Shown here: piece after piece, positions 10,810 to 55,208 of the stretch
Layout: each line of letters starts with the position of its first letter
How positions within the stretch are numbered: position 1 is the stretch's first letter
Assembly (NCBI GenBank): GCA_963810935.1
Contig: CAWEPK010000008.1
Location: 544,001-608,000 of the forward strand
Origin: an uncultured delta proteobacterium
GTDB taxonomy: Bacteria; Desulfobacterota; Syntrophorhabdia; Syntrophorhabdales; WCHB1-27
Direction: 5' to 3'
Length of the DNA: 64,000 bases
Translations under genes and position numbers: made by a program
The notes under the pieces: model-generated
Seen by the model: the letters and a program-made list of their open reading frames with translations, nothing else
What the model was told of the DNA's origin: nothing
Databases searched by the model: none

Positions 10810-11517
10810 ATGAAGTGGCTGAAGGTCTTTGCGATACCCGCCAGTCTTCTGCTGATATTGCTCGGCATAGCTTTACCTGCGAACGCGGAGCTTTACCTGT
10901 ATATGACCACAAGTCCGACCCTTCCGAGTTCTTATGTCGGCACTGGAAGCGACACCGTGTCCTTTTCGGGACCGATCGGCAACTGGACTACGAATTTCAC
11001 AACCGGCATCAAGCTCACCAGCCAGGGCCCGGCCAACATCGATCTCAATTCCGTTAACCTGACTTCAGTAGGCGCAGGCACTCTCTACATCTATCTGGTG
11101 GGAACCGACCTTTGGGCCTACGAGCAGAAGTGCTTGTTCACGGCCAGCGTGACAACGATGGGCAGCGTCACTTTCGCCGGTTACTATAACGCAAACAATT
11201 CCAGCACCCCGTCCGCCGGGGGATGGACCCAGGCCGTCAGCTTGCCCGCTGTCGGCTCATACGCCTCGAACCCGGCCGGTGTTCCTTCCTCCTTCGCCCA
11301 AGATACAACGTTCCCACAAAACTTGGCGCAGAACACCACTTACTCGTTCATGGAAACCGCCGTAATATCTCACACGTCCGGAAATCAGGTAACGAGCTTC
11401 AATGAAGAGGTGTCGGCAGGCACACATATGCCGATACCGGGCGGTGTCTGGCTCCTCGGCGGGGCGCTTATGGGGTTGATAGGCATAAAAAGGCGGATGA
11501 CGGGAAAAAAGGGCTGA
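10810..11517 (+). CDS. Secreted Ser/Thr-rich protein with PEP-CTERM/VPLPA-CTERM-like sorting signal
   Basis: Signal peptide ending ANA; C-terminus MPIPGGVWLLGGALMGLIGIKRR (motif + TM helix + basic tail). Confidence 0.85.
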   Translation: MKWLKVFAIPASLLLILLGIALPANAELYLYMTTSPTLPSSYVGTGSDTVSFSGPIGNWTTNFTTGIKLTSQGPANIDLNSVNLTSVGAGTLYIYLVGTDLWAYEQKCLFTASVTTMGSVTFAGYYNANNSSTPSAGGWTQAVSLPAVGSYASNPAGVPSSFAQDTTFPQNLAQNTTYSFMETAVISHTSGNQVTSFNEEVSAGTHMPIPGGVWLLGGALMGLIGIKRRMTGKKG

Positions 11518-33828: not shown

Positions 33829-34470
33829 TTATCTTTTGAACCTTCTCCTAAGTACACCGAGACCCAGAAGGCCGGGGGTGAAGAGAAGAATGCCCGCAGG
33901 GAGGGGTACGGCGTTGGAGTTGGCGTTGACGTCCATCATGAACGGGTTAGTGCTGGCGGCGGTGCCCCACGAGCTACCGTTATTTCCGCTATAGTAGACT
34001 CGAAAACCCGATCCGTTCCCGCTAGTATCGGGCGTACTTTGCCAAAATAGATTGCCGGTACTACCGTTAAGGTTAAGGACCACCCAGTATATCGAGTTGG
34101 GGTTGAGATTGATGCCGCTTGCGGTAAAGGTAGTAAGGCTGGCGTTATTATAAACGGTGTAGCTCCCCGGCGAGGTAAGGGTACCGACTAGGGTGCCCGG
34201 TTGGCCGTTCCCCGTACCCGTGTTCGTGAAAATCGACACGGTGGCCGTCGTTCCCGCAGTGTTGACCGACATGTCGAGGACCACCGACGACAGGTTGTAG
34301 GACGAGGAACCGGTCGAGAAGCTCTGGGCCCACCAGGTATTGGCGCCGACGGTACCCTCGCCTGTGGAGCTATTGCCAAGGTTGTTGAAGAGAACATCTG
34401 CATTGGCGGCAGGGGCGATGAACGTCAATGCAATGGCAAGAGCGAAAACAACGATGAGCAGTTTTTTCAT
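33829..34470 (-). CDS. Secreted Ser/Thr/Asn-rich protein with VPLPA-CTERM sorting signal (choice-of-anchor R-like domain)
   Basis: Signal peptide ending ANA; WAQSFSTG; C-terminus VPLPAGILLFTPGLLGLGVLRRRFKR; AGGAGG RBS. Confidence 0.9.
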   Translation of the reverse strand: MKKLLIVVFALAIALTFIAPAANADVLFNNLGNSSTGEGTVGANTWWAQSFSTGSSSYNLSSVVLDMSVNTAGTTATVSIFTNTGTGNGQPGTLVGTLTSPGSYTVYNNASLTTFTASGINLNPNSIYWVVLNLNGSTGNLFWQSTPDTSGNGSGFRVYYSGNNGSSWGTAASTNPFMMDVNANSNAVPLPAGILLFTPGLLGLGVLRRRFKR

Positions 34471-37134: not shown

Positions 37135-39084
37135 TCATGTGGCGAGGGATTGCCTTTGCTTCTCGCCGCGCCTTTTCGCTATCTGCATGACGACTACTGC
37201 TCCGAGGATTACACAACCGATGATATCCTGCATCGATCCGGCATAAAACAGCAGCAGGCCGGCGATGCCCAGGGCAATCCGTCCGATTGCGCCGATTTCG
37301 CTAATCAGGTAACCACCCACGCAGCCGGAAAGCGCCCAGACACCCGCAAGGGCCGTCAGGGTGACGACAATTATATTGAGGACGGGGCCTTGAAGCAGAA
37401 GGCCGACGCCATCCGGTGAAGACGCGAACATGAAGGGGACGATGAAGGCAGGCAGCGTATACTTCCAGGCAAGCATCGTCGTCTTGAACGGGTTGCCGCC
37501 TGTAATGGCCGCAGCCGCGAACGGCGAAAGGGCCGTCGGCGGCGACACCTCGGAGAGGACCGCATAATAGAAAATGAACATGTGGGCAGCCGCCTCGGGC
37601 ACGCCGAGCTTTACCAGGGCGGGCGCCGTCATCACTGCGGCAATGATGTATGATGCCGTGATAGGAAGGGCCAGTCCAAGGACAAGAAGGATCAAGGCGG
37701 TGAAGATCAGCGTCATATAGAGGCTGCCGCCTGCTATATCGACGATGATGCCCGAGAACTTGAGTCCTATACCCGTGAGGTTAATGACGCCGACGATGAT
37801 GCCCGCGCATGCGCAGGTAGCCGCAACGCCCAGGACCTGCTTCGTCCCTGCAGCCAGAGCTTCGATCAGCTTACGGGGAAAAAGCGCCGAAACCCTGTTG
37901 AGGAAGCTCGTCGCAATGGCGATCAGGATGCTGTAAAAGACCGCCGTGATCCCGGTGAACCCCAAGGCCATGAATATGACGATAGTGACCAGGGAGGCAA
38001 AGTGAAACCAGTACTGCCTGGTAAGCGCCACGACATCTATCTTTCCCAGGCTCACATGCTTTAGCCCGAAGCGGTGCGAGTCGCCCTGCACCATGAAAAG
38101 GATGGAGGCATAATAGAGGATCGTCGGCACGGACGCCATTATCAGGACCTGGAGGTAGGATATCCTCAATATCTCGGCGATGAGGAACGAGGCCGCGCCG
38201 AGGACCGGCGGCGAGAGTATGGCCCCTATGCCGCCCGCAGCCAGAAGACCCCCGGCCGAGTCCTTGTCGTACCCTGAACGCTTGAGGAGCGGCCAGGCGA
38301 CGGACCCCAGGGTAACGGTAGTGGCAGCCCCGCTGCCCGACACCGTCCCCAGAAGGAACGACGCGAGAGTCACCGCACGGCCCGCCCCCGCACGGCTTTT
38401 ACCCATGCAGCCGAGCGCAAAATCGACGAAGAACTGGCCCGCCCCGGATAGCTCCAGAATGGCCCCGAAAATCGTAAAGAGTATGATAAAAGTCGAAGAG
38501 ACCTCCACCGGCGTGCCGAACAGCCCGTTCAAGGTCATGTACTCAAGGGCCACCATGCGGGTGATCGTATAGCCGCGGTGTCCCCAGGGCTCCGGCAGGA
38601 TACCGCCCCAGTAGGCGTATGCTATGCAGACCAGGACGACGATCGGGAGCGCTATGCCTGTCGCCCTGCGGGTCGCCTCAAGGACAAGGATGCAGGCGAG
38701 CACGCCGAGCGCTACGTCCATCGGCAGGGGGTTCGGGACGCGGTACATGAATGCTTCGAGGTCGAGGAACGGGTAAGCAAACGCTACGAAGACTAAAATG
38801 GCAAGGAAGATATCGACTGCAAGGGCGCGCTGTTTGAGTCCGCGGGAAGGCGGGTAGTAAAGGAAAGTGAGCATCAGGATCAGCATGACGTGCACGTACC
38901 GCACGACCTGCGTGATCATGGAGGCGAATGCACCGTAAAGGGCAAAGAGGGAGCAGAAAACGGCCAGGGCTGTCGCTATGTACCACATCGGCCCCGTGAA
39001 CTTCCGGGTCGGGGCCTCGAACTCCTCAAGTATCTCCTCGGCCTTTTCGGCCGATATGGTCTCCAGCCTGTCCTGCTCCTCCAC
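37135..39084 (-). CDS. TAXI-TRAP fused 4TM/12TM permease
   Basis: LEATRR, GLFGTP, SGSGAA, PPVLGAASF, GLALPIT, SEVSPP. Confidence 0.93.
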   Translation of the reverse strand: MEEQDRLETISAEKAEEILEEFEAPTRKFTGPMWYIATALAVFCSLFALYGAFASMITQVVRYVHVMLILMLTFLYYPPSRGLKQRALAVDIFLAILVFVAFAYPFLDLEAFMYRVPNPLPMDVALGVLACILVLEATRRATGIALPIVVLVCIAYAYWGGILPEPWGHRGYTITRMVALEYMTLNGLFGTPVEVSSTFIILFTIFGAILELSGAGQFFVDFALGCMGKSRAGAGRAVTLASFLLGTVSGSGAATTVTLGSVAWPLLKRSGYDKDSAGGLLAAGGIGAILSPPVLGAASFLIAEILRISYLQVLIMASVPTILYYASILFMVQGDSHRFGLKHVSLGKIDVVALTRQYWFHFASLVTIVIFMALGFTGITAVFYSILIAIATSFLNRVSALFPRKLIEALAAGTKQVLGVAATCACAGIIVGVINLTGIGLKFSGIIVDIAGGSLYMTLIFTALILLVLGLALPITASYIIAAVMTAPALVKLGVPEAAAHMFIFYYAVLSEVSPPTALSPFAAAAITGGNPFKTTMLAWKYTLPAFIVPFMFASSPDGVGLLLQGPVLNIIVVTLTALAGVWALSGCVGGYLISEIGAIGRIALGIAGLLLFYAGSMQDIIGCVILGAVVVMQIAKRRGEKQRQSLAT

Positions 39085-39132
39085 CGCACTTCCTCCCTGA
39101 ATTACCGTAAAACCGGTCTTGCCGTCACTTCG

Positions 39133-40116
39133 CTACTTCCAGGCGCCGTGCTCCTTGTAGTATTTGATCGCGCCCGGATGGAAAGGTATCTCGGCGAGGT
39201 TGGTCGCGGCCTTGAGGTTCAGCTTCATCGCCTCTTTATGGACTGCGACCAGGTCCGCCTTCTTCTCGAAAAGGCTTTTCGTTATTGCATAGACCAGCTT
39301 TTCATCCATCTTATCCATCGTTACGAATATAACGGGCACGGAGATCGTCTTTACATCCGCGTCCTGCCCCCTGTACGTACCCTTCGGTATTACCGCATCG
39401 TAATAGATGCGTCCGTGCTTCTTTACGATGGCAGGGAGATAGGACTGGACGTCCATCAGCTTGTAGCTCAGGCCCGGCGTTGCGCCGAGGTCGAGCATGG
39501 AAGCCGCAGGCAAGCCCGTAGCGAAGAAGAAGCCGTCTATCTTTCTATCTTTGAAAGCGTTTGCAGACTCGCTCAGGCTTATGCGCTCCCGCTTGAAGTC
39601 CTTGACAGGGTTGATGCCGGCTGCCTCCAGGAGCTTTCCGGCGACCATCTCGTGGCCGCTGCCCGGCGCGCTCGTCGAGATGCGTTTCCCCTTCATATCC
39701 TCAAGCTTGTTGATCCCCGGCACCACGACCACGTGGGCGATATCCGGATAGAGGACCGCTATGGCCCGCACGTTCACCTTGCCCGTGCTCGCGTAATATC
39801 CCACCCCTTTAATCGCTTCCGATGCGGCGTCGCTCTTCGTGAACGCGAAATCGAGGGAGTTGTTCTGCAGCATCTTAATGTTATCGACGGCCCCCGGCGT
39901 GACCTCGGCCGTTGCCTGAGTACCCGGGACATTTGCCGACATCACCTTGGCGATGGCGCCACCGTAGATGTAATAAACACCGCCGACGTCTGCGGTCCCT
40001 ATCGATACCCTCCGGACCTGGGCCTCCGAGGAGGCGCAGGTCATAAGGATGGCCGCGAGGGCAACCAACGTGGCGACGACCGCTGTAATCCCGCACCTGC
40101 TCGTTGTTCTTCTCAT
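39133..40116 (-). CDS. TAXI family TRAP substrate-binding protein
   Basis: Signal peptide, IGTADVGGVYY, TPGAVDN, APGSG, IPFHPGAIKYY. Confidence 0.94.
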   Translation of the reverse strand: MRRTTSRCGITAVVATLVALAAILMTCASSEAQVRRVSIGTADVGGVYYIYGGAIAKVMSANVPGTQATAEVTPGAVDNIKMLQNNSLDFAFTKSDAASEAIKGVGYYASTGKVNVRAIAVLYPDIAHVVVVPGINKLEDMKGKRISTSAPGSGHEMVAGKLLEAAGINPVKDFKRERISLSESANAFKDRKIDGFFFATGLPAASMLDLGATPGLSYKLMDVQSYLPAIVKKHGRIYYDAVIPKGTYRGQDADVKTISVPVIFVTMDKMDEKLVYAITKSLFEKKADLVAVHKEAMKLNLKAATNLAEIPFHPGAIKYYKEHGAWK

Positions 40117-40140
40117 ACTACGTACCTCCTCGATAAATGG

Positions 40141-41782
40141 TTATCCACGCGCGTTCTGCACTATCTCGACGCCGGGCGAGCCGTCCGGCCGCCGTGAAAC
40201 GACGATCCTTTTTTTCCAGTCCGGGTCTGTTGCCGGAAAATCCTCCCGGTGGTGCGTTCCCCTGCTCTCTTCGCGCGCCAATGCGGCACTCGCAATGAGC
40301 GAGCCCGTAACGAGCCGGCTCTGAAGGACAGCGCTGCCGCCTTTCCCGGCACTCTGGATCGCATCGAGGACTTCCTTGAGTCCCTTCGCGGACCTTATTA
40401 TAGTCATGTTCGAGTAATAAAGGGCGGCCATCCGGTCCATCAGCTTCTTGTCCGCATCGGAAAGCGGCGTGATGCCGGGGTCCGCGAGCCGGGGTTGCCT
40501 GCCCGCCTTTCCTGCTTCGGCCGCCTGTCCTGCCGCCGCGCGTCCCGCCCGGTACCCGAAGACCTGCGTATCTATAAGATTGTTTCCCCCCGGCCTGTCC
40601 GACCCGTGCACGCCCCCGGACGCCTCGCCGGCGGCGTATAAGCCCTCTACGCCGGTGAAGCCGTCCGCGTCTATCAATATGCCGCCGTTGAAGTTCTGGA
40701 CGACAAGGCCGACCTCCAACCGATGGCGGGCCAGGTCTATCCCTGCGCCGAGCAGGGCCTTGTAGGTCACGGGCGCCTTGCTCATGAGCGTTTCCCGGCC
40801 GACGTGGGTCACGTCGAACCAGACGGCCCCCGACGGAGTCCCCCTGCCCTCCATGACTTCCCTGAAGACGGCGATGTCGAGGTACTTCGCATCCGTCCTC
40901 ACGGAAAACGGGTAGGACATGGCCTTCAGGTCGAGCACCGCGTCGGGGCTGACTCCGGCCGGGCAGTAACGGGAGAGGAACTCTTCGCCCTGCGTATTCG
41001 TCAGGCGCGGACGCAGCCTCCACATATGGCTGTGGATAATGAACGTAATGGGCGTGTTGAAGACCGCCGGGCCCACCTGGAAAAACTCAAGGTTGACCAG
41101 GCGCGCTCCCGCCCTGTATGCCATCGACCATCCGTCCCCCTCGACAGTCGGGGGGTTGACGTTGTGACTGAAGATCCTGCCTGCGCCCCCGCTTGCCAGA
41201 ACGGCTGACCGGCTCTTTATGAAGAAGGTTTCACCGTCCGCGAGGCCGACTGCGCCGCAGACCCTTTTCTCATCGTCCTGCACGAGGTCGAGGACACGGC
41301 TGCCTTCCATCACACGGACGCCTCAGCTGCCCGATCCGCCCTTTAAGTGCGCGGACCATTTCCTTTCCCGTCGAGCCTCCGCAGGTCAGGGAACGCGCCT
41401 TCGTGCATCCCGATAGCTTCCGCTGCACTATGCGCCCGCCGTCTGCGTCGAACGCGACTCCCATCTCCATAAGCTCGCTTACGCGGTCGCACGCCTCGTC
41501 TGCGATTATCCTTGCCAGCGCAGGGTCGCCTAGGCCGCCGCCCGTCTCGATTATGTCGCGGTAAAAGACATCCGGGTCGTCCCCATCGCCTTCGAAGTTG
41601 AAGGGGGCGTTGATGCCGAGGCTTTCGGAGGCGATGAGGTTCGTGCTCCCGCTCGACCCGAAACCGCCCGCCACGACCAGGAGCACATCGAGGCCGGGGT
41701 ACGCCCGCTTCGCCTCGTATGCGGCCCTGCTTCCCGCAGCGCCGCCTCCTATGACAAGGACATCACAGCCAAGCTCTCTCAT
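40141..41782 (-). CDS. SdhA/FrdA/NadB-like FAD-binding oxidoreductase (one extra A near 41323)
   Basis: DVLVIGGGAAG; joins ...GRIGQL [+A] GVRVMEG...; LASGGAG, GDG..MAYRAGA, GLYAAGE, REESRGTH. Confidence 0.88.
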
Positions 41783-41808
41783 CTCCCGCGACCCCCTCGA
41801 AGATGCGT

Positions 41809-42483
41809 CTATTTTTCTTTAAGCCCCTTGGCCTCCAGGCTCTTGTTGAAACCGTAAAGCTCCAGGGTCGTTTCGCCTTTCTTCAGCTTCTCCATGATGA
41901 TCTTTTCTTTTTCCACCCTGGCCTTGCACGCCGCCAGGACCGTCGCTATCTCCTCACGGGCCACTATGACGACGCCGTCCGCGTCACCGAAAACGAGGTC
42001 GCCCGGATTCACCGTGATTCCCCCTATGAATATCGGATAGTTGATGAGGCCCAGCGAGTCCTTTGTAGTCCCTTTGATGCACAGCGACCGCGTGAACATA
42101 GGAAAGCCCATGTCGATGATGGCGCGCGAGTCGCGTACGGAGCCGTCCATAACCATCCCGGCGATGCCCCTTACCTGGGCAGCAAAGGTCATCACCTCGC
42201 CCCAGGGCCCCGCCTCCGTGTAGCTGCCTGTCGTTATCACCAGCACGTCGCCCGGTCCCGCGACGTAGATGGCCTTGTGGAACATCAGGTTGTCGCCGGG
42301 GCGGCACTTCACCGTTACCGCCGGGCCGCATAACCGGCTCGAAGGGTCGATGGGCTTGATCTCACTCGATAAGGCGCCCTTGCCGCCCGATGCCTCGTGT
42401 ATAGTAGCGCTGTCTAAATCCGCGAAGCCCTTAATCAGCTCCTGAGGCGGACGGACAATTTCATTGATTACATGAGGCTCCAT
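41809..42483 (-). CDS. RraA/LigK-family aldolase (HMG/CHA aldolase-like)
   Basis: ATIHEA, GPAVTV, GDNLMFH, WGE, DGSVRD, PGDLVFGDADGVV. Confidence 0.88.
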   Translation of the reverse strand: MEPHVINEIVRPPQELIKGFADLDSATIHEASGGKGALSSEIKPIDPSSRLCGPAVTVKCRPGDNLMFHKAIYVAGPGDVLVITTGSYTEAGPWGEVMTFAAQVRGIAGMVMDGSVRDSRAIIDMGFPMFTRSLCIKGTTKDSLGLINYPIFIGGITVNPGDLVFGDADGVVIVAREEIATVLAACKARVEKEKIIMEKLKKGETTLELYGFNKSLEAKGLKEK

Positions 42484-42495
42484 GTTACCTCCGTT

Positions 42496-43938
42496 TCATT
42501 GGGCTACCACGATGCCGAGGCGGCCTGCCGCTTCTATCGCGGCCTCCAGGCTCGGCTCCGCGTCTACGATGGCGAGGCGCCCCCCGCCCCTGTTGCGGGA
42601 ATCGACCATCGCACTCCCTTCTGCAGTCTCGATCCTGATGCGCTGGACCTCAGGCTCTTTGACCTCGACGAGCTCGATGGGTATCTTGCGGCTAAGGACG
42701 TCGGCGACGACCTTGCGGTAGCTTTCGATATCGTCTGTGGCCGATCCGTAAACTGCGCCCATCAGTATGCCTGGGACGTTGATGGCCCGGCGCGAGAAGA
42801 GGTCGGAGGTCAGCTCGATGCGGATGCGCACGGGCTCTCCGCCGGCAAGCTCGTGGCAGATGCGCCCCATGTTCGTCGGCGATCCCACCGCCATGCTGCT
42901 GCCGCCGAAGACCACGTCGCCCAGCGAGTGCCTGATGGAAGGCGACTGGGCCGCGAGGCTGCGCACCTCCTCCCTCGCTTGCCGGAGCACCTCCTCTTTC
43001 TCGGCCGCCTCCTTCGCCAGCACTTCAGGGCTGACGAACTTTTCCACGTTCTCGTCGCGCTCGAAAAATGGGCGCAGGTACCGGATATTGATCGGTGTGA
43101 TTACAGGCGCCGCCTCTCTGTGTATCCTGGCAGCCATCGCCACCATCGCGTCCACGTCGACCGGCATGGGCAGGGATGTCTTCAGCACGAGGTTTGCCGC
43201 CTGGTTGCCTATAAGGATCGCAGCGCTTATATGGAGCGCGCAGAGCCCCGGCACCATCACGCGGGGCGTGCAGGGGACTGCAATCGTGGGCGATAGGGCA
43301 AGCACCAATGCCTTGCCGACCTGGGTGGGGCTCCCGCCCCTAAGCTCCGTGAGGACGGCGGCCGTTACCGCGGCGCCCGCTCCGATGCCTTCCATATTGC
43401 AGCCCGTCGTTGCCTTGCCCGCGCGGAAAATGCCACCGATCTTCAGCATGAGGGCGGTCGCGTGGGCGATCTGCCCGGCCGGGTAAGGTTTTTCTTTGAG
43501 TGCCCTCAAGAGGCCCGTATAAGGGCACGAATCGCCCGTGCCTGCGCAGGGCCGCAGTCCTATTTCATGGTTTCCCACCTCTGTCGCAAGGGTATAGGTT
43601 AGGGCCCGGTTGATGAAATCGTCCTCGATCTGGGCGGGACCGTTCTTATTCTCCCGGTTCAGGTCGGACGCAACGCTGCCCAAAAGGAAGCTCTTGCCTT
43701 CGGTGAGGCCAAGCTCGCACGCGCTTAAGTTGTGGCGGAAGGCCCCGGTCACCTCCGCGAGAAGCTCCTCGTAGCCCATCTTCTCCTGCGCCATCGCCTG
43801 GGCGACGACCAACGCAGAAAGCGGAGCGCCCTGCCTTTCAGCCATCTCGATCAGCTCCGTGAGCGTGTAAGGCTTGGCCGGGTCAGCGGCAAAGCCGCCG
43901 ACGAGCCTTTCCGTAATCTCTTTGAGTGTATCTGTCAT
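42496..43938 (-). CDS. Fe-S L-serine-dehydratase-like protein, alpha-then-beta fusion
   Basis: PCAGTG, GCNMEG, PCTP..GLC (alpha-type Cys motifs); C-terminal VFGGSSMA resembles beta-subunit MIGPSSSH. Confidence 0.7.
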   Translation of the reverse strand: MTDTLKEITERLVGGFAADPAKPYTLTELIEMAERQGAPLSALVVAQAMAQEKMGYEELLAEVTGAFRHNLSACELGLTEGKSFLLGSVASDLNRENKNGPAQIEDDFINRALTYTLATEVGNHEIGLRPCAGTGDSCPYTGLLRALKEKPYPAGQIAHATALMLKIGGIFRAGKATTGCNMEGIGAGAAVTAAVLTELRGGSPTQVGKALVLALSPTIAVPCTPRVMVPGLCALHISAAILIGNQAANLVLKTSLPMPVDVDAMVAMAARIHREAAPVITPINIRYLRPFFERDENVEKFVSPEVLAKEAAEKEEVLRQAREEVRSLAAQSPSIRHSLGDVVFGGSSMAVGSPTNMGRICHELAGGEPVRIRIELTSDLFSRRAINVPGILMGAVYGSATDDIESYRKVVADVLSRKIPIELVEVKEPEVQRIRIETAEGSAMVDSRNRGGGRLAIVDAEPSLEAAIEAAGRLGIVVAQ

Positions 43939-43962
43939 TCGAGCCTCAAGCGGAACACCCGC

Positions 43963-44628
43963 CTACCTCTTCGACTGCAAGGAGTGGTATCCGAATTTCT
44001 GTCTAGCCTCTTTAAGCGAGAGCCCGCCCCTGACCGCTTTCTCGATCCTGTTTTCCGCCTTCTCGATATCGAGGGCGAGCTTCAGGACCTCCTCGGCCCT
44101 CTCGTGGGGGACGACCACCACCCCCGTGTCGTCGCCCACCATTATATCGCCCGGCTTTACCTGGGTCTTTCCTATCGAGACGGTCACGTTCATCGCCTCG
44201 ACCATCACCCGGTCCTTGCCGGTCATCATGAACCTCCCACGTGTGAATATGGGGTACTTCTCTTTTATTATGTACGGCACGTCGCGGCAGACGCCGTCGA
44301 TGACCGTCCCGGCGATCCCTTTTTGCTTCGCCACCATCGTAAGGATATCGCCCCAGACCGTGCAATCCGTCCGTCCGTAATTGTCCAGGACGATGACGTC
44401 TCCCGGCTCGACTATGTCTATATAATCGCCGACTGTCCCCTTGACCTGCCCGATAGGCACGTACCGTATGGTGAAGGCGGGGCCTGCCATCTTCGCTCCC
44501 TGCACTACGGGCAGTATCCCTTCGCAGCCGCCCCTGAGACCGAACGCGTCGAGGGCATCCGAGATGGCGGCGGTGGGAAGGGAGACGAAACCTTTTACGA
44601 TTTTTTTGGCCGGCCGTGGAATCTCCAT
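43963..44628 (-). CDS. RraA family protein (aldolase-like)
   Basis: ISDALD, GPAFT, WGDIL, DGVCRD, PGDIMVGDDTGVV. Confidence 0.88.
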   Translation of the reverse strand: MEIPRPAKKIVKGFVSLPTAAISDALDAFGLRGGCEGILPVVQGAKMAGPAFTIRYVPIGQVKGTVGDYIDIVEPGDVIVLDNYGRTDCTVWGDILTMVAKQKGIAGTVIDGVCRDVPYIIKEKYPIFTRGRFMMTGKDRVMVEAMNVTVSIGKTQVKPGDIMVGDDTGVVVVPHERAEEVLKLALDIEKAENRIEKAVRGGLSLKEARQKFGYHSLQSKR

Positions 44629-44637
44629 CTGCTCCTC

Positions 44638-45309
44638 CTATTTCTTCAGCATCTGCTCGTAGTTATACTTGCTGTCGACCTCCAGGATGTCCATGCCCGC
44701 AAGTATGTCGGCCTTCATCGCTTCCTCCTTCCGGAGGATATCTTCGGCGGCAGAGACGACTTCCTCGAGCTTCTCCGGGGGGATGACGACCATTCCGTTC
44801 ACGTCCGCAACGATGATATCGCCCGGGCGCACCTGGACGTCGCCCAGGCGTATGGGGCAGTTGAAGTCCTCCTGCATGATCCTGCCGCGCGCGGTTATCG
44901 GCACTACGCCGCGCGCGAATACAGGGAACCCTATCTCCTGGCAGAAGTCGATATCCCTCGCTGCGCCATCGACGACTACGCCGGAGACGCCCCGTTTCTG
45001 CGCTGCGCAGGAGAGGATCTCCCCCCAGCAGTTGTTGTATAGATCGCCCCTGTTGTCGATGGCGATGATGTCGCCCGGCGATGCGGACGCAATGGCGTCG
45101 ATCCCTAGGTGGCGCTTTGATTTCACCATGCCCGCCGCCGTCATTTTGATCGTGGCCGCCAGCCCGGCGATCTTCGGCATGCCGAAGAGTGGACGGATGC
45201 CGATTACGGCGCCGCGCAGCCCGGTCGCGTCGAGCGCATCCGCCAGGTTTGTCGTCGAAAGCCTCTCCAGCCGCCCTCGGTAGGCAGCGTCGAACGCCTC
45301 TGCATTCAT
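44638..45309 (-). CDS. RraA family protein (aldolase-like)
   Basis: LADALD, WGEIL, DGAARD, PGDIIVADVNG. Confidence 0.88.
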   Translation of the reverse strand: MNAEAFDAAYRGRLERLSTTNLADALDATGLRGAVIGIRPLFGMPKIAGLAATIKMTAAGMVKSKRHLGIDAIASASPGDIIAIDNRGDLYNNCWGEILSCAAQKRGVSGVVVDGAARDIDFCQEIGFPVFARGVVPITARGRIMQEDFNCPIRLGDVQVRPGDIIVADVNGMVVIPPEKLEEVVSAAEDILRKEEAMKADILAGMDILEVDSKYNYEQMLKK

Positions 45310-45326
45310 CTCGGTCGCCCCCCTTC

Positions 45327-46518
45327 TCACTTATAGACTAACCGCGGCGCATAGGTCGGGCAGACCTCCGTGCACATGCCGCAGACATCACACGCCTTCG
45401 CGTCGATCACCGCACCCGCCTTGGTCACGGTGATGGCGTCGTAAAAACAGACTCCGCAGGCAGACGCCGCATTTGGTGCATTTGGCCGTATCGATCACCA
45501 CGGCTACATTCTGGGGCTTTCTCGGGACTTCGGCGGTCTTGACCATGTTGGGCAGGGCGATGCCCCTTATGTCCTTCAGGCTTTTATATCCCTTAGCCTC
45601 CATCCAGGCGGACATGGAGTCCTGCCATCTCTGGGACACCTTGTAGCCCTGCATCATGATGCCGACGCCCGATTGCACGAGGGTGGCGCCGACCATCAGG
45701 TAGCGCACCACGTCCTGCCATTCCCAGGTGCCGAGGCCCGCGATAATGGGTATTTTCAGTTCCTTAGCCGCCTGGCCTACCAGCTTCAGTCCGTAGCCCA
45801 CGAGGTAGGGTCCGCCGTAACCACCGATTGCGCCGAACGGGTAAGGCTTCGCGGTTTCGATGTCGAGCGTGATGCCGGAAAGCCGGGCGGACATGTTGAC
45901 CGCATTGGCGCCTGCCTCCTCGACCTGCTTCGCTATGATAACGGGGTCGTTCGTCTGAGGTGTGATCTTCACGCTGAAGGGCTTCTTTAAGACCTCTTTG
46001 CATGCCTTGACGAACTGGTAGGTGAGATCGACTGCGCCCGCCCCCATCTTGATGCCCATGTCTGCGGCAAAGGGACAGGAGTTGTTCAGCTCGACCCAGT
46101 CCGCCTTCGTCTTGTTGACGAGGGTGCACATCTCGATCCATTCGTCCATGCTGGAACCGGACAGGCTGGCGATGACAACGCCCGTATCGCCGACCAGGTC
46201 TTTTGCCTTGTCGATGTCCTTCATGTACGTCGGGTAATCGTAGGCCGAGCATTCCTCAAGTGAGCGAAGGGTGAAGGCGTGGGGCAGCTTGTCGGGATAT
46301 CCCGGATATTCCCTGTAGTCTATCAGCTTGAACCTCGGCCTCGGGAACTCGCGGCCCAGCTTTCCGCCTTCGCCGAAAAGAGACTTGGCGATGACGGCGC
46401 CGGCGCCTCCTTCAATGCCCTTTTTCATCGCCTTTGCGTTCATCGTGGGCGTCGCCGAGCCGACGACGATGGGGTTCTTGAACCGAACTCCTGCTATCTC
46501 AGTCGAAAGGTCGACCAT
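45327..46518 (-). CDS. Dihydroorotate/dihydropyrimidine dehydrogenase (PreA)-like FMN protein with C-terminal 2x[4Fe-4S] domain (one extra base near 45452)
   Basis: FKNP, GAVIAKS, ELNNSCP, VKITP, GGYGG; CTKCGVC..[+1]CFYDAI...CDVCGMCTEVCP, TGA at 45327. Confidence 0.85.
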
Positions 46519-46534
46519 GTTATAAACTCCTCCT

Positions 46535-47281
46535 TTACCGTTTTTTTCGAGTATCTTTACGGGACTCCCGCAATGGTAACTCTTTATCCTGAAGCGCCGT
46601 CTGGATCTGGCCTATATGCTCGAGCATTATGTCTCTGGCGTCCTCCGAATTGCGCTCCGATATGACCTTGAAGAGCTTATCGTGGTAGTCGAGCGTTCTC
46701 TGCACGGGCTTTTCGGTGAGGACGATGGCGGACGAGACGTTATTCTCCATTATGTCCAGCATCGAATCGATCATGAAGAAGATCACCGGGTTCTCCGACG
46801 CCTGCGAGATGATCCGGTGAAACTCAAGATTAAGGAGCCTCGCGTCGGTCGGGTTCTTCTTTTTGAGGCACTCCCTCGTCTCCTCTATGTTCTGCTTCAA
46901 CTGCGCGAGCGCCTCATCCTTTATCCGCATGGCCGCCAGGGCCACTGAGAACGGCTCTATGGCGAGCCTCGCCTCGGTGAGGTCGGCGATCTTGATATTG
47001 CCGAGAGAAAACATGTCCTGGAGGAAGTTGTTGCCCGTCTTGACGCTGGGATCGACGAGAAAGGCGCCGCCCTGCATGCCCCTTCTAATCTCAAGAATGC
47101 CCGTATATTCGAGCTTCTTGAGCGCCTCCCGCACGGTGACACGGCTGCACTGGAACTGCTCCATTAGCTGCCGCTCGGACGGCAGCTTCTCACCCGGCGT
47201 GATCTTCTTCTGAAAGATCGCCTGCTTTATCTGCTCGATTATCGCCTCAGAAATCCTGTCTGTCCTGACTGATTTAAACAT
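46535..47281 (-). CDS. FadR/GntR family regulator (wHTH + FCD)
   Basis: PGEKLPSER, SRVTVREAL, EARLAIE, FHRII..ASEN, MLEHI. Confidence 0.95.
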   Translation of the reverse strand: MFKSVRTDRISEAIIEQIKQAIFQKKITPGEKLPSERQLMEQFQCSRVTVREALKKLEYTGILEIRRGMQGGAFLVDPSVKTGNNFLQDMFSLGNIKIADLTEARLAIEPFSVALAAMRIKDEALAQLKQNIEETRECLKKKNPTDARLLNLEFHRIISQASENPVIFFMIDSMLDIMENNVSSAIVLTEKPVQRTLDYHDKLFKVISERNSEDARDIMLEHIGQIQTALQDKELPLRESRKDTRKKR

Positions 47282-47577
47282 GTCCCCCTATGCCTCATCC
47301 TTGAATCATATACATCATACATCCAAATGTTAGTCCTTTGTCAACACGAAAAACTACCGGACAAGGTCCGTTAAATGACCTGTTCCCAGCAAGGCCGGTA
47401 TTAATGCCTCTTGAAAGGTGGAAACCTGCTTTTGCCCATGGCCGATTTTAATTGACAACGGGCTGTGGGGAGTCAGATAATGGATGAATTTGCAAAAGCC
47501 CAGGAGCCGGCGAGAGCGGGGTGGAAAGTCAGTGAGTCCCCCTGCGGGGCCGTACAATCGGCGACTAAAAGGCGGAC

Positions 47578-52706: not shown

Positions 52707-53252
52707 CTAATTCTCTCCCTTGGCCGCAATACGCGAGACGGTATCGACGACCGTCTGCAAACCGTATTTATCGACCATGGAGCCCAGGCCCGCCTCGACC
52801 TGCTCTATCTCCACCTGCTCGTCAATTTCCTCTTCACGCTCTTCGTAAGTGAGGACGTTGCTAAGGCAGACCTGTACGCACATCGGCTTTTCCAGCGGCG
52901 GGTCGCTCTCGCACAGATCGCACTTGAGCGGCAGGCCGGAGTCCGGCTCCTTAAAAAGGTCCCTGGAAGGACATGAGGCCCTGCAGAAGCCGCATTCGTC
53001 ATATTCTTTGCCGTCGATAATATACTTGTCCCTGCCCATGCACTCGGCAGGCGTATATTCGCCGGCAAAGACGGGCAGCCATATATTCTTCACCCTGTGG
53101 GTGATGATCTGGATGCGCGACCGCGCAGGGTTGTTGCTGCTGTACTGCGGGTTCGCGTGGAATGCGGAGCAGACGATCTCACACCCGCGGCAGCCGTTGC
53201 ACTTGTCGGCATCGACCTTGATTGTCTTGACGATTTTCTTAATCTTTGCCAT
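52707..53252 (-). CDS. bamC: Class II benzoyl-CoA reductase Fe-S subunit BamC-like
   Basis: CNGCRGCEIVC, NPARSRI, YDECGFCRASCPSRD, LPLKCDLC; overlaps the bamB stop. Confidence 0.88.
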   Translation of the reverse strand: MAKIKKIVKTIKVDADKCNGCRGCEIVCSAFHANPQYSSNNPARSRIQIITHRVKNIWLPVFAGEYTPAECMGRDKYIIDGKEYDECGFCRASCPSRDLFKEPDSGLPLKCDLCESDPPLEKPMCVQVCLSNVLTYEEREEEIDEQVEIEQVEAGLGSMVDKYGLQTVVDTVSRIAAKGEN

Positions 53253-55208
53253 TGTTCAATATCCCTCTCTTTTCTAGGTCTTCAGCGACATAAGTCAAGT
53301 CGAGCTCCTCCAGCCTTTCCCTGGTGGGAACGCCGTCCATATTCCAGCCCTTGTACGTATAGTACGTGGACAGGAGATCTTCCTCGAGCTCCGGGACCCT
53401 CTTCTTCCAGTGGTCCTTCGGCGGTTTCTCGTCGGCCCTTCTCATGCCCCGCCTGTTGTTGAACGCCCTGTGGAGGTTCCGGCTCCTGTTGACTATCTTC
53501 TTGAGCCCCGCTTCGTCTACGTCCATCCCGGTAGCCGCAGATATCAGCTTCGGGTAGTTGTGGATATGATACGGGGGCTTGAGACAGAACGACGACATGC
53601 CCGCGCAGACGCAGCAGGCGTCGTCGATGTTATGCAGCATCTCCATCCAGTCCACGATCTCGGCGCACATGTTCGGCGTCGGGAAGTTAGGTATCGCTTT
53701 CTCCCCGCGGATATCCCAGTCGAGGAGGTACTGCTTGAAATGCTCGTCGGGAAGCTGCGGCCAGTCTTTAACGAAGGCTTCCCTCTGCTCCATCGTCGGG
53801 AAGGCAGATTGCGGCCACTGTCCCTCGATCTGCGTGATGCTGATCTTCTCGTTCGTCGAGTACATAAGAAAATAAAGGGGATCGAGCATGCCCAGCTTGA
53901 GTGGCAACTGCTCGTGCCGCTTGATGGTGTTGTGGTCGAATTCCTCAGCCCCGTTGCCGATGGCCCGCGCGGCGTAATAAACGCCGTCCGCGAGGACGTC
54001 CCCGATCCCTTCCCTGCGGGCGATCCTGTCGAGGAGCCAGAAGAACCTCCCCTCCTTGTCGGCGGGACATCCATCGAAGTCCTTGTCGGTGAGGATGCCG
54101 GCATCGTACAGCTCGACGGCGAAGGCCATGATCTGCGGAGTGGAGAAAGAGTCGAACCCGTACTCCGTGGCTTTTTGCAGGATCCTGAAGTTGAAGCCCA
54201 GGTCGTCTACCATTGCCCCCATGCAGTATGTGAGCTTGCCGAAGCATTTCATCATGTAATAGGGGGATTCCTGGTAGGAGACAAGGGCCCCGCAGTGCTG
54301 CGGGCAGTTGAAACAGCTTATCAGCCGCTTTACCGCCTCGTGCTGCGCCGCGATCCAGTTCGTCTCGTTTTCCTTACTCCAGAAGTCTCTTCTTCTGGTG
54401 CGGGCATTACCCCACATAAAGTTTTCCGTATGCCACTTTTCATCGGTGTGGACCATCTCCTGGGGCGACCCGATGCCCGAGAGGATCGTCATGACGTCCG
54501 GGATAGGGTTCGCGTTCCGGTAATTTATATATTCCGTCACGCCCTTCATGAGCTCCATGAATTCTGCGCCCCTGGCGAGGTTGACGTCCTTCGTCCCCCG
54601 GACGGCCACGGCCTTGACCTTCTTGTCCCCCAGGACTGCACCGCCGCCGAGCCTCGATGCGCTAGACCGGGACTGCTCGATGGAGGCCGTGAAGCACCTG
54701 TTCTCGCCGGCCAGGCCGATAGCGGCCACCTGTATCCTGTGGTCACCCAATTCTGCCCTGATAAGGTCCTGCGTCTCGACGGCGCCCCTGCCCTTCAGGT
54801 GCGTGGCGTCGCGGAGCTCCACCTTGTCGTTGTTTATCCATATGTAGACCCAGTCCGGCGATTTGTTGCGCAGGACGACTTTATCCCAGCCTGCATATTT
54901 CAGCTCGGCCGAGAAAAACCGCCCATCATCGGATAGGCCAGCAGGTGCGATTGCGGGGAAACAAAGGTGACGACCGTCCGGTTCGCGCTGAAAGCAGGTG
55001 TCGCGTTGAACAAGCCGGAGTCGATTATCAGCATATTATCGTCGTCGAACGGACCGACTTCAGGCCCGACCCTGTCCCAGTGCATCTTGACGCTCGTGCC
55101 CAGCCCCCCAAGGTGGGTTTCCATCATCTTCGGGTCCGTTTCCACCCGCTCGATGTTCCCCGACGCCAGGTCGATTTCCAAGTTGTAGCCCGTTTCGGCG
55201 TATCTCAT
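53239..55208 (-). CDS. bamB: Tungsten-containing class II benzoyl-CoA reductase catalytic subunit BamB (AOR family); one T missing near 54914-54918
   Basis: MRYAETGYNLE, MMGGF[+T]FSAELKYAG, GSPQEM..DEKWHTENF.WGNARTRR, CFNCPQHC, MMKCF, KPPYHIHNYP; closely resembles Geobacter BamB as recalled. Confidence 0.9.

Follow-up and report, generated by a model that had tools for sequence, protein, structure and literature searches.

The window analysed here, a 64,000-nt stretch from an uncultured delta proteobacterium, carries nine co-oriented genes on its minus strand (37135..47281). The spacing of 9 to 48 nt given by the first-pass annotation is confirmed by coordinates and gaps alike: counted from the GntR/FCD gene, the gaps are 16, 17, 9, 24, 12, 26, 24 and 48 nt, with the stop of the PreA-like gene taken as 45327. 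A purine-rich stretch precedes every gene. The leading gene (46535..47281, on the minus strand like all features below) encodes a GntR/FadR-family regulator that exceeds the Pfam cut-offs for GntR and FCD and falls under all named NCBIfam cut-offs. Ahead of it, at 47328..47344, lies a putative FadR-type operator with a conserved -35 box (TTGACA-AA-GGACTAACA). The pattern TTGAC-N2-5-GG[AGT]CTA occurs upstream of close GntR orthologues in 21 of 22 regions, which are related rather than independent loci, and is matched 10 times across the entire 4.06 Mb genome.

At its other end, the operon closes with a TAXI solute-binding protein (39133..40116) and a fused TRAP permease (37135..39084), above the cut-offs of TIGR02122 and TIGR02123, respectively. 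The TAXI protein has lysine at the position of TtGluBP Gln78/VcGluP Gln93 and alanine for Ser75, residues whose roles in the glutamate site are covered in the accessible part of PMC11574862; judging from these replacements, it is probably not a glutamate binder. The TAXI-TRAP, present in 4 of 35 RraA-type loci, does not belong to the core and is an interchangeable accessory.

Two of the genes are frameshifted in the window by single extra bases at 41324 and 45451, both missing from the contigs of four of four short-read runs (Logan contigs, all from a single study that may have sequenced the source samples). Both frameshifts are assembly errors, and the scenario of real frameshifts in a decaying operon does not hold. 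Frame-corrected, the two products measure 396 and 546 aa, with 396 and 548 aa in relatives. A third indel of like type lies at 54913, in an unrelated gene. Gene order is identical in genomes G001, G016 and G018; the locus of G012 is rearranged and that of G005 reduced and cut by a contig end. With its genes also co-occurring elsewhere, the description of the cluster as a conserved catabolic operon stands, and none of the nine genes encodes a CoA enzyme. The altered active sites noticed earlier are real, and since they are invariant or nearly so across 13 to 14 orthologues, they do not reflect decay.

The second gene (45327..46518; DHO_dh domain; assembly frameshift at 45451) encodes a PreA-like FMN enzyme with a 2x[4Fe-4S] tail, which we propose to be a reductase of a (ring) C=C bond. 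Scored as the frameshifted ORF, it reaches 185 bits against the PRK08318 cut-off of 335. The orthologue in G018 keeps the catalytic cysteine of ELNNSCP and shows MSAR for MINT, and the eight Fe-S cysteines are invariant in 14 rows. No PreT partner was found among the nine genes by Pfam/NCBIfam profile matches. The second redox enzyme (40141..41782; assembly frameshift at 41324) is an SdhA/NadB-fold flavoprotein, encoded in an operon that lacks an SdhB partner; it matches FAD_binding_2 and Succ_DH_flav_C, remains below every NCBIfam cut-off, and the model of an orthologue superimposes on SdhA 7D6V with a TM-score of 0.82. R295 and R396 are invariant in 13 rows; R396 aligns to the arginine of HGxNR, and R295 is presumably the catalytic arginine. 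The SdhA/FrdA/NadB fold and its arginines are kept. Three motifs are altered (QFHP to Q[VI]GP, HYxxGG to QNFNGG and AHT to STN); the dicarboxylate-binding and covalent-FAD histidines are gone, and the substrate site is rebuilt.

The gene previously described as serine-dehydratase-like (42496..43938) instead encodes a putative [4Fe-4S] hydro-lyase, full-length and 48% identical over 455 aa to a gene of the Eubacterium barkeri nicotinate cluster that we take to be Hmd, 2-(hydroxymethyl)glutarate dehydratase. The neighbour of that gene is the enamidase 2VUN. The protein of the operon has its serine-dehydratase alpha-type part first and the beta-type part last, and Cys180, Cys223 and Cys233 are near-invariant in 72 alignment rows. 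An assignment as L-serine dehydratase (SdaA/SdaAB) was rejected, with 31 bits for TIGR00718 against a cut-off of 243; identity falls from 45% within the Hmd-like family to about 30% for canonical L-serine dehydratases, and comparison of a model with 4RQO (E 7e-6, TM 0.43) indicates a relationship by fold only. A PDB sequence search returned spurious ribosomal matches alone, and an ESM Atlas search SDH_alpha clusters without names alone. Proteins of the window clade share conserved substitutions of their own (E120, D261, N284 and D379), and their substrate may have changed.

The RraA set accompanies the Hmd-like gene at 35 of 83 loci and the B12 mutase module (Mgm/Mii/MgmL/Dml) at 36, with no locus having both; a search for full-length Mgm succeeded in 2 of 2 controls and in none of 37 carrier genomes. 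That RraA-linked Hmd arose twice, in two separate clades, is unsupported (p-AU 0.12). The RraA-type Hmd proteins may form a single clade, in which case this exclusivity may count once, as one phylogenetic split. In 6 of 10 Firmicutes-clade loci, Ena, Hgd and Hmd adjoin RraA genes, a D-2-hydroxyacid dehydrogenase and a LarA-family isomerase. Genome G000 (93% complete) yielded no Mgm, Mii or Dml, and its Hgd-like matches reach only 35 to 38% and lie in other clusters. In a sister cluster, for example that of Thermacetogenium phaeum, Hmd is replaced by aconitase X, likewise an Fe-S dehydratase of beta-hydroxy acids: of 80 PreA loci, 21 carry aconitase X, 14 Hmd and none both. The substitute is closest to 7CNR, presumably mevalonate-5-phosphate dehydratase, a UbiD-paired enzyme whose substrate is a tertiary beta-hydroxy acid, and lies far under the LhpI cut-off (314 versus 700).

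Three genes encode RraA-fold proteins: RraA1 (44638..45309) and RraA2 (43963..44628), both with RraA-like matches, and RraA3 (41809..42483). In the tree they fall into three orthologous clades; RraA1, shared with aerobic loci, and RraA2, 48 to 58% identical to aerobic orthologues, each form a clade of their own (SH-aLRT 98 in both cases), and all three proteins have the metal/pyruvate motif G[ED]..DG..RD. RraA3, earlier labelled LigK-like and a putative aldolase of that type, matches 3NOJ (E 1.3e-50), passes the HMG/CHA aldolase model PRK09262 (219 bits, cut-off 179) and stays below TIGR02798 (192, cut-off 304.5); RraA1 and RraA2 remain under the PRK09262 cut-off at 98 bits each. The core RraA is RraA1, while the LigK-like RraA3 is often absent. 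RraA1 is the commonest in PreA loci (34/80) and RraA3 the least retained (11/80); several long loci lack RraA2 or RraA3, and two (L022 and L150) have no RraA gene at all.

RraA genes also occur in aerobes. In nine aerobic plasmid loci, hand-picked from 154 records of which 111 are of one genus, RraA1 and RraA2 adjoin a LigY-like amidohydrolase in six and an aminotransferase only in three. The Aminobacter copy, the one compared with the PDB, matches LigY at E 2e-122 and LigJ at E 6e-59. In G375, the neighbour of the RraA trio is a class III dioxygenase, and the 13-kb contig there has no LigY-like gene. The LigY product is CHPD, according to the accessible part of PMC6874591, and the accessible part of PMC12673573 proposes for strain SYK-6 a route from CHPD via HMG to two pyruvates, in which the hydratase figures as unidentified. 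CHPD is the enol of 4-methylene-2-oxoglutarate. We found no precedent for hydratase or isomerase activity of an RraA fold.

The cluster is patchily distributed across phyla, including Desulfobacterota, Chloroflexota, Bacillota (among them human-gut Oscillospiraceae) and metagenome contigs. The cultured carriers named for PreA orthologues are T. phaeum, Moorella stamsii and Lawsonibacter hominis, so that the substrate can be sought by induction screens. A literature search outside subscription journals found no description of the gene combination, in agreement with the earlier statement that no known pathway has it; the Hmd homologue nevertheless links the operon to a characterized one, that of nicotinate. 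A riboflavin preprint (10.64898/2026.02.13.705874), in its accessible part, concerns a different cluster, and the T. phaeum proteome supplement PMC12674515, as far as accessible, has one RraA row, at low level and not mapped to the cluster.

On balance, we lean toward a CoA- and B12-independent route in which the PreA-like reductase, the flavoprotein and the Fe-S lyase, acting in an order that is not fixed, would generate 4-methylene-2-oxoglutarate. In this route, the carboxylate brought in by the TAXI-TRAP would carry no amino group and would double as the ligand that lifts FadR-type repression. The PreA-like enzyme would reduce an alpha,beta-unsaturated carboxylate, as a counterpart of Hgd, from which the Firmicutes version would obtain its hydroxymethyl group, and the flavoprotein would oxidize the alpha C-H of a hydroxy or amino acid or of a saturated ring, a job for which other versions may employ a D-2-hydroxyacid dehydrogenase, a LeuB-like enzyme or an aminotransferase. 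Beta-elimination of water or a ring heteroatom by the Hmd-like lyase, or by aconitase X, would leave an exocyclic methylene. RraA1 and its partner RraA2, as Mg-dependent enzymes enolizing 2-oxo acids, would then shift the double bond of 4-methylene-2-oxoglutarate/CHPD and add water to give 4-hydroxy-4-methyl-2-oxoglutarate (HMG), which RraA3 would cleave to two pyruvates. The statement of the first-pass annotation that sequence cannot give the substrate is too strong: comparative context indicates a specific intermediate, if not the imported compound.

As to the compound itself, we tentatively suggest a 2,4-dicarboxylate of the furan or pyrrole type, with a five-membered ring that is heteroaromatic or partly reduced and would open without a hydrolase. 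Heteroaromatic precursors fit the cluster UbiDs, which are closest to HmfF, and the ADH/AOR genes that recur in the loci. An example would be the 2,4-disubstituted furan of methanofuran after oxidation of amine, alcohol and aldehyde; the natural supply of furans and pyrroles of this kind (methanofuran, melanin oxidation products) is modest. Were the substrate a fully aromatic 2,4-dicarboxylate, it is hard to see what the flavoprotein would do, and loss of CO2 through a decarboxylase would depart from the C6 skeleton. More speculative still, the operon could encode the first route by which a five-membered heteroaromatic dicarboxylate is broken down independently of O2, CoA and B12, with a DHODH-fold enzyme dearomatizing it, an Fe-S lyase opening the ring by heteroatom elimination, and an RraA pair of new isomerase/hydratase chemistry, identical with the missing aerobic CHPD hydratase, delivering HMG to the aldolase. 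The pyridine and pyrone dicarboxylates and orotate analogues named earlier are not favoured because the operon lacks a ring-opening amidohydrolase.

Two other readings are each unlikely. In one, the Hmd-like protein or aconitase X would hydrate a 4-oxalomesaconate-type tricarboxylate to CHA, RraA3 would yield pyruvate and oxaloacetate, RraA1/2 would tautomerize or decarboxylate, and PreA, flavoprotein and UbiD would make the enoate from an aromatic polycarboxylate. The 7CNR-like aconitase X, the passing of the CHA aldolase model by RraA3 and the dioxygenase neighbour in G375 suit this, but RraA3 is the RraA least retained, and the loci with Ena, Hgd, Hmd and RraA, like those with an aminotransferase only, point to a hydroxymethyl or methylene C6 acid.

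The other, equally improbable, starts from ordinary 2,5-furans (furfural, HMF, furoate and FDCA): ADH/AOR would oxidize, UbiD (de)carboxylate, PreA dearomatize and the flavoprotein re-oxidize, RraA enzymes would add water to a linear 2-keto-3-deoxy acid and split it, and dehydration of glycerate or a ring intermediate would fall to the Fe-S lyase. These substrates are abundant, Fe-ADH is present in 9 operons and AOR in 6, and the best match of the cluster UbiD is HmfF 6H6V (E 3e-78 versus 2e-52 for the next family). At the positions of HmfF H296, R304 and R331, both arginines are found in 19 of 21 locus UbiDs and the histidine in 14 of 21, a pattern that may be common to non-furan UbiDs. The role of the histidine is given in the accessible part of PMC7976604, and a 2011 review (PMC3223595), in the part accessible, calls anaerobic furan pathways uncharacterized. 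However, the linear skeleton offers Hmd-type chemistry no natural step, the LigY, aminotransferase and Ena/Hgd contexts stay unexplained, the window operon lacks UbiD, ADH and AOR, and three of the genome's six UbiDs, those aligned, all lack the first arginine.

Distinctly less probable is that the operon serves nicotinate fermentation as a lower branch without B12, with 2-(hydroxymethyl)glutarate or 2-methyleneglutarate itself as substrate, for all that the Hmd homology, the exclusivity with Mgm and the Ena and Hgd genes of six Firmicutes loci speak for it. 2-Methyleneglutarate lacks the 2-oxo group on which an RraA enzyme would act; Ena and Hnr, like Mgm, Mii and Dml, were not found with these queries in G000, nor Hnr in any of 10 Firmicutes-clade genomes; and Ena-like genes occur with similar frequency in relatives lacking Hmd (31/55) and in those having it (3/6), and lie in a separate Ndh/Ena/Hnr cluster. 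Genome-level enamidase co-occurrence (14/37 carriers) was dropped, control relatives showing 34/61. Dipicolinate would leave Hmd without obvious use in the operon; gene functions for dipEFG are not given in the accessible part of PMC11472048. Vitamin B6 was rejected because the supporting neighbours (class II aldolase-like, lactonase-like, NMT1) are too rare, at one to three loci each, and its C2 methyl misfits CHPD. Finally, a decaying or chance cluster, made up of broken genes, an ordinary serine deaminase and regulators of RNase E, as the window frameshifts and the database name L-serine dehydratase might suggest, is rejected as next to impossible by the four runs free of both indels, the conserved order and co-occurrence, the low sda_alpha score and the metal/pyruvate motif kept by all three RraA proteins.

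What had been an anonymous anaerobic cluster of several phyla now yields specific assays. For the CHPD-to-HMG step of lignin-biphenyl catabolism in SYK-6, RraA1/RraA2 are direct candidates, and this reading of the pair, if true, would give two large, so far unassigned RraA clades a function. Hmd-family and aconitase X lyases stand in for each other, the operon would be a B12-free alternative beside the E. barkeri mutase route, and should the substrate be a furan, the long-open question of anaerobic furan biodegradation becomes testable.

Among known systems, PreTA and class 1B DHODH share with the operon the FMN barrel, the catalytic cysteine and the 2x[4Fe-4S] tail; unlike PreTA, the operon has neither PreT nor dihydropyrimidinase, and the pyrimidine-binding residues are replaced (MINT to MSAR). 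The late steps of E. barkeri nicotinate fermentation, which Alhapel and colleagues reportedly described in 2006, are Hgd, Hmd, Mgm, Mii, DmdAB and Dml. The likeness lies in the full-length Hmd homologue with its identical three cluster cysteines, and in sister loci of Firmicutes Ena and Hgd are retained as well; Mgm, Mii, MgmL, Dml, Ena and Hnr, however, are absent from the operon and were not found in G000, and the RraA trio, the PreA-like enzyme and the SdhA-fold flavoprotein occupy their place. Protocatechuate and gallate 4,5-cleavage end with LigU/LigJ/LigK and GalD/GalB/GalC, and the operon resembles them in its logic of isomerization, hydration and retro-aldol cleavage and in the LigK-like RraA3, but has two extra RraA clades and no PrpF-type isomerase or amidohydrolase hydratase. 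Sister clusters carry an aconitase X pair, HmfF-like UbiD and UbiX, recalling the aconitase X and UbiD/UbiX module (archaeal mevalonate pathway; cis-3-hydroxyproline dehydratase) and HmfF, yet embedded in an uptake and catabolic cluster with PreA, flavoprotein and RraA. The DDVA lower pathway (LigZ/LigY to CHPD), as set out in the accessible parts of PMC6874591 and PMC12673573, has an end identical to the one proposed here, HMG to two pyruvates, and RraA1/2/3 orthologues adjoin aerobic LigY-like and class III dioxygenase genes; the hydratase candidate published there is UxuA, not the RraA pair. In contrast with that pathway, the anaerobic operon has no oxygenase or LigY, and the CHPD skeleton would arise by redox chemistry and Fe-S elimination.

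The nine minus-strand genes at 37135..47281 are separated by gaps of 9-48 nt and belong to the families that the first-pass annotation had named, although its reading of the fifth gene as serine-dehydratase-like did not hold: the protein scores 31 bits against the true SdaA model (cut-off 243) and has a homologue in the Eubacterium barkeri nicotinate fermentation cluster. Its predicted model bears a loose resemblance to L-serine dehydratase 4RQO. The lyase belongs to a tight family, with 1150 matches among 8000 scored candidates and full-length members down to 45% identity, the next group following after a gap at about 30%; the window's own clade carries specific substitutions. The E. barkeri relative (48% identity over 455 aa), a cluster neighbour of the enamidase 2VUN, we take to be Hmd, the 2-(hydroxymethyl)glutarate dehydratase. 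Alhapel et al. in 2006 are said to have described this conversion to 2-methyleneglutarate. PMC9304392 bears out the upper nicotinate pathway, as far as 2-formylglutarate.

A genome scan with the Hmd-like lyase gave 202 relatives, 80 of which were kept; with two further relatives and the window, these make 83 loci. RraA genes were present at 35 and the Mgm/Mii/MgmL/Dml module, which includes the B12-dependent mutase Mgm, at 36; no locus had both, and 12 had neither. None of the 37 carrier genomes, many of them incomplete, yielded a full-length Mgm (17 match the B12-binding domain only); both controls were positive. The RraA-type Hmd proteins divide between two groups, one of Desulfobacterota/Chloroflexota and one of ten Firmicutes members, and since a single clade was not rejected (p-AU 0.12, 22 rows), the mutual exclusion may reflect one event. 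Partners in the former group are the PreA-like protein (13/35 loci) and the flavoprotein (15/35), many contigs being short; in the latter they are a D-2-hydroxyacid dehydrogenase (7) and a LarA-family isomerase (7), with Ena and Hgd in six loci as well. Hnr was found in none of the ten Firmicutes-group genomes, so the substrate there is probably not nicotinate. Six gut Firmicutes loci (L050, L060, L063, L065, L070 and L081), in genomes without Hnr, combine distinct Ena and Hgd with two AA_synth genes, isochorismatase, Zn-ADH, LarA group 22 and RraA, and their gene content suggests a cyclic-enamide substrate. A third Hmd context, seen in Betaproteobacteria (L036, L046, L047, L057), brings together cupin, MmgE/PrpD, aconitase, LeuCD and TctC, with RraA and Mgm both absent. 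TAXI/TRAP genes occur at 4 of the 35 RraA-type loci, their place being taken elsewhere by ABC, TTT, MFS or DctP-type transporters. The operon itself is rare: when 401 genomes of the phylum were compared, five had an RraA1 match, which adjoins Hmd in four of them.

A search centred on PreA yielded 105 metagenome matches, and the 80 kept, which include several near-duplicates, contained the flavoprotein at 47 loci, RraA1 at 34, RraA2 at 20, RraA3 at 11, Hmd at 21 and aconitase X (AcnX) at 14, with Hmd and AcnX together at none. Among the 32 loci of at least 8 kb, the counts were flavoprotein 28, RraA1 25, Hmd 14, AcnX 10 and UbiD 9. From these numbers we take the core to be PreA, flavoprotein, RraA1 and one Fe-S hydro-lyase; some loci lack RraA2/3 or every RraA gene. 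One genome, in which a protein named from Thermacetogenium phaeum has a 100% match, carries PreA, flavoprotein, RraA1, RraA3, RraA2, an AcnX pair and GntR, plus a second PreA, UbiD, TRAP and UbiX. By source name, PreA orthologues also occur in Moorella stamsii, M. glycerini, Lawsonibacter hominis and Flavonifractor, which are known from PreA alone. Recurring inside the operons are Fe-ADH (9 loci), AOR (6), MmgE/PrpD (4), class III aminotransferase (3) and M20 deacylase (2).

Several variants stand apart. L213-L214 (G513:C1:2407900-2427400) is a near-identical PreA pair 8 kb apart, the cluster being followed, by eye, by UbiX, 2-oxoacid oxidoreductase-like and type 2 IPP isomerase-like genes. 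At L138:4485-6256 a corrinoid protein and a URO-D/MtaA-like methyltransferase lie within the operon, so the precursor used by that lineage may be O- or N-methylated. L041 lacks the flavoprotein; it has a different PreA clade (30%) along with MmgE/PrpD, LeuB-like and LeuCD genes. The window's own genome (G000) holds a separate AcnX pair (45%) at C17:204500-214000 with GntR, a DctP-type TRAP and, by eye, LarA-like and metallo-hydrolase-like genes, probably another catabolic cluster.

The altered active sites noted in the first-pass annotation were confirmed. ELNxSCP and eight Fe-S cysteines are conserved in PreA, but MSAR replaces MINT and brings in an arginine that would suit a carboxylate. The flavoprotein has the SdhA fold, with the covalent-FAD histidine and both substrate histidines replaced, and Gly, His, Gln and Cys invariant across 13 orthologues; its substrate is therefore expected to be new, neither fumarate nor aspartate. 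In the TAXI protein, Lys stands where the amino-binding Gln would be and Ser75 is replaced by Ala; the roles of these positions are those given in PMC11574862. All three RraA proteins retain the metal/pyruvate motif, and only RraA3 passes the aldolase model. Elsewhere in G000, by eye, an SdhA-fold paralogue without SdhB lies beside IlvD-like and KDG kinase/aldolase-like genes (C9:116700-127100), and an XDH-family cluster includes hydroxypyruvate-isomerase-like and tartronate-semialdehyde-reductase-like genes (C8:282400-293400).

RraA1, RraA2 and RraA3 form three clades (SH-aLRT 98, 98 and 99) that also contain aerobic proteins. Plasmid records with an RraA1 match number 154, of which Ralstonia accounts for 111. 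Nine aerobic plasmid loci, picked by rank and genus, were viewed. A LigY-like amidohydrolase adjoins RraA1 and RraA2 in six of them (two Bradyrhizobium, pNL1, Rhodococcus, Aminobacter, Polymorphobacter), five of which have a class III dioxygenase too; in the other three, from Ralstonia, Cupriavidus and Bosea, a class I/II aminotransferase takes the place of the amidohydrolase. Against LigY the Aminobacter enzyme scores E 2e-122, against LigJ 6e-59; the LigY match is known from this copy alone, the other five being 38-55% identical to it. The LigY product is CHPD, according to PMC6874591; CHPD is the enol of 4-methylene-2-oxoglutarate. PMC12673573 proposes that CHPD proceeds via 4-hydroxy-4-methyl-2-oxoglutarate (HMG) to two pyruvates, lists the SYK-6 hydratase as not identified, and nominates UxuA in Paenibacillus for the step without biochemical proof. 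The aminotransferase alone would yield 4-methylene-2-oxoglutarate from 4-methyleneglutamate, and Ena, Hgd, Hmd and a 2-hydroxyacid dehydrogenase would yield it from hydroxylated tetrahydro-oxonicotinate. Three unrelated upstream sets would meet at one intermediate, which is our main argument.

In the route that we propose, imported substrate would be reduced by PreA as an alpha,beta-unsaturated carboxylate and oxidized by the flavoprotein at the alpha carbon; the Hmd-like lyase would eliminate water or a ring heteroatom to give 4-methylene-2-oxoglutarate, RraA1/RraA2 would isomerize and hydrate this to HMG, and RraA3 would cleave HMG. We lean towards this route as a whole, by a modest degree. 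Because the operon has no hydrolase, any ring has to open by way of an enol ether or enamine. This speaks for a 2,4-dicarboxylate of the furan or pyrrole type, or one that is partly reduced, a substrate we name only tentatively. The accessories (HmfF-like UbiD, ADH, AOR, aminotransferase) are compatible with furan- or pyrrole-type precursors. Against the route, a fully aromatic substrate would give the flavoprotein no role, a decarboxylase would shorten the skeleton, and both the loci short of RraA genes and the substitutions in the lyase clade fit it poorly.

Passage through a 4-oxalomesaconate-type/CHA intermediate instead seems unlikely to us. Ordinary 2,5-furans are likewise an improbable substrate. 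In their favour, HmfF is the closest match of the cluster UbiD, and 21 locus UbiDs compared at HmfF H296/R304/R331 keep both arginines in 19 and the histidine in 14. Anaerobic furan routes were uncharacterized as of 2011, according to PMC3223595. A branch of the nicotinate pathway is very improbable. Ena-like genes are present in 14 of 37 carriers, but this co-occurrence failed its control: they are also found in 34 of 61 relatives, including 31 of 55 without Hmd, where they sit in a separate Ndh/Ena/Hnr cluster. Ena, Hnr, Mgm, Mii and Dml have no match in G000, and the window's operon has no tie to nicotinate. Relatives L115-L122 carry an upper nicotinate cluster (Ndh, Ena, Hnr, ApbE-like, AA_synth) in which Hgd, Hmd and Mgm were not seen. 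By eye, four of the loci have an aldehyde-dehydrogenase-like gene; a route from 2-formylglutarate to glutaryl-CoA is possible there.

Decay of the cluster through real frameshifts, which the first-pass annotation had entertained, can practically be dismissed: the PreA-like and flavoprotein genes have one break each within the window, but the single bases at 45451 and 41324 are absent from contigs (not raw reads) of 4/4 soil-metagenome runs, from one study and possibly the samples behind the window's assembly, and read-through gives 396 and 546 aa, against 396 and 548 aa in G018 and G016, which share the gene order. The same error type affects an unrelated gene at 54913. The operon is intact. 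That gene, of the aldehyde:ferredoxin oxidoreductase family, lies with an Fe-S partner at 52707-55208 (-), its split being an assembly indel (4/4 runs); the pair resembles class II benzoyl-CoA reductase BamB/BamC. Two low-complexity secreted proteins are encoded at 33829-34470 (-), with a PEP-CTERM-like sorting tail at its end (by eye), and at 10810-11517 (+). At 47328-47344 a -35 box is followed by GG[AGT]CTA, a pattern found upstream of 21 of 22 close regulator orthologues (the loci being related) and 10 times in the whole genome; we regard it as a putative repressor site.

In the literature searched, with most subscription journals outside its scope, we found neither this gene combination nor the Hmd/AcnX interchange nor an RraA hydratase/isomerase of the kind proposed. 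Every part of the operon has a known fold.
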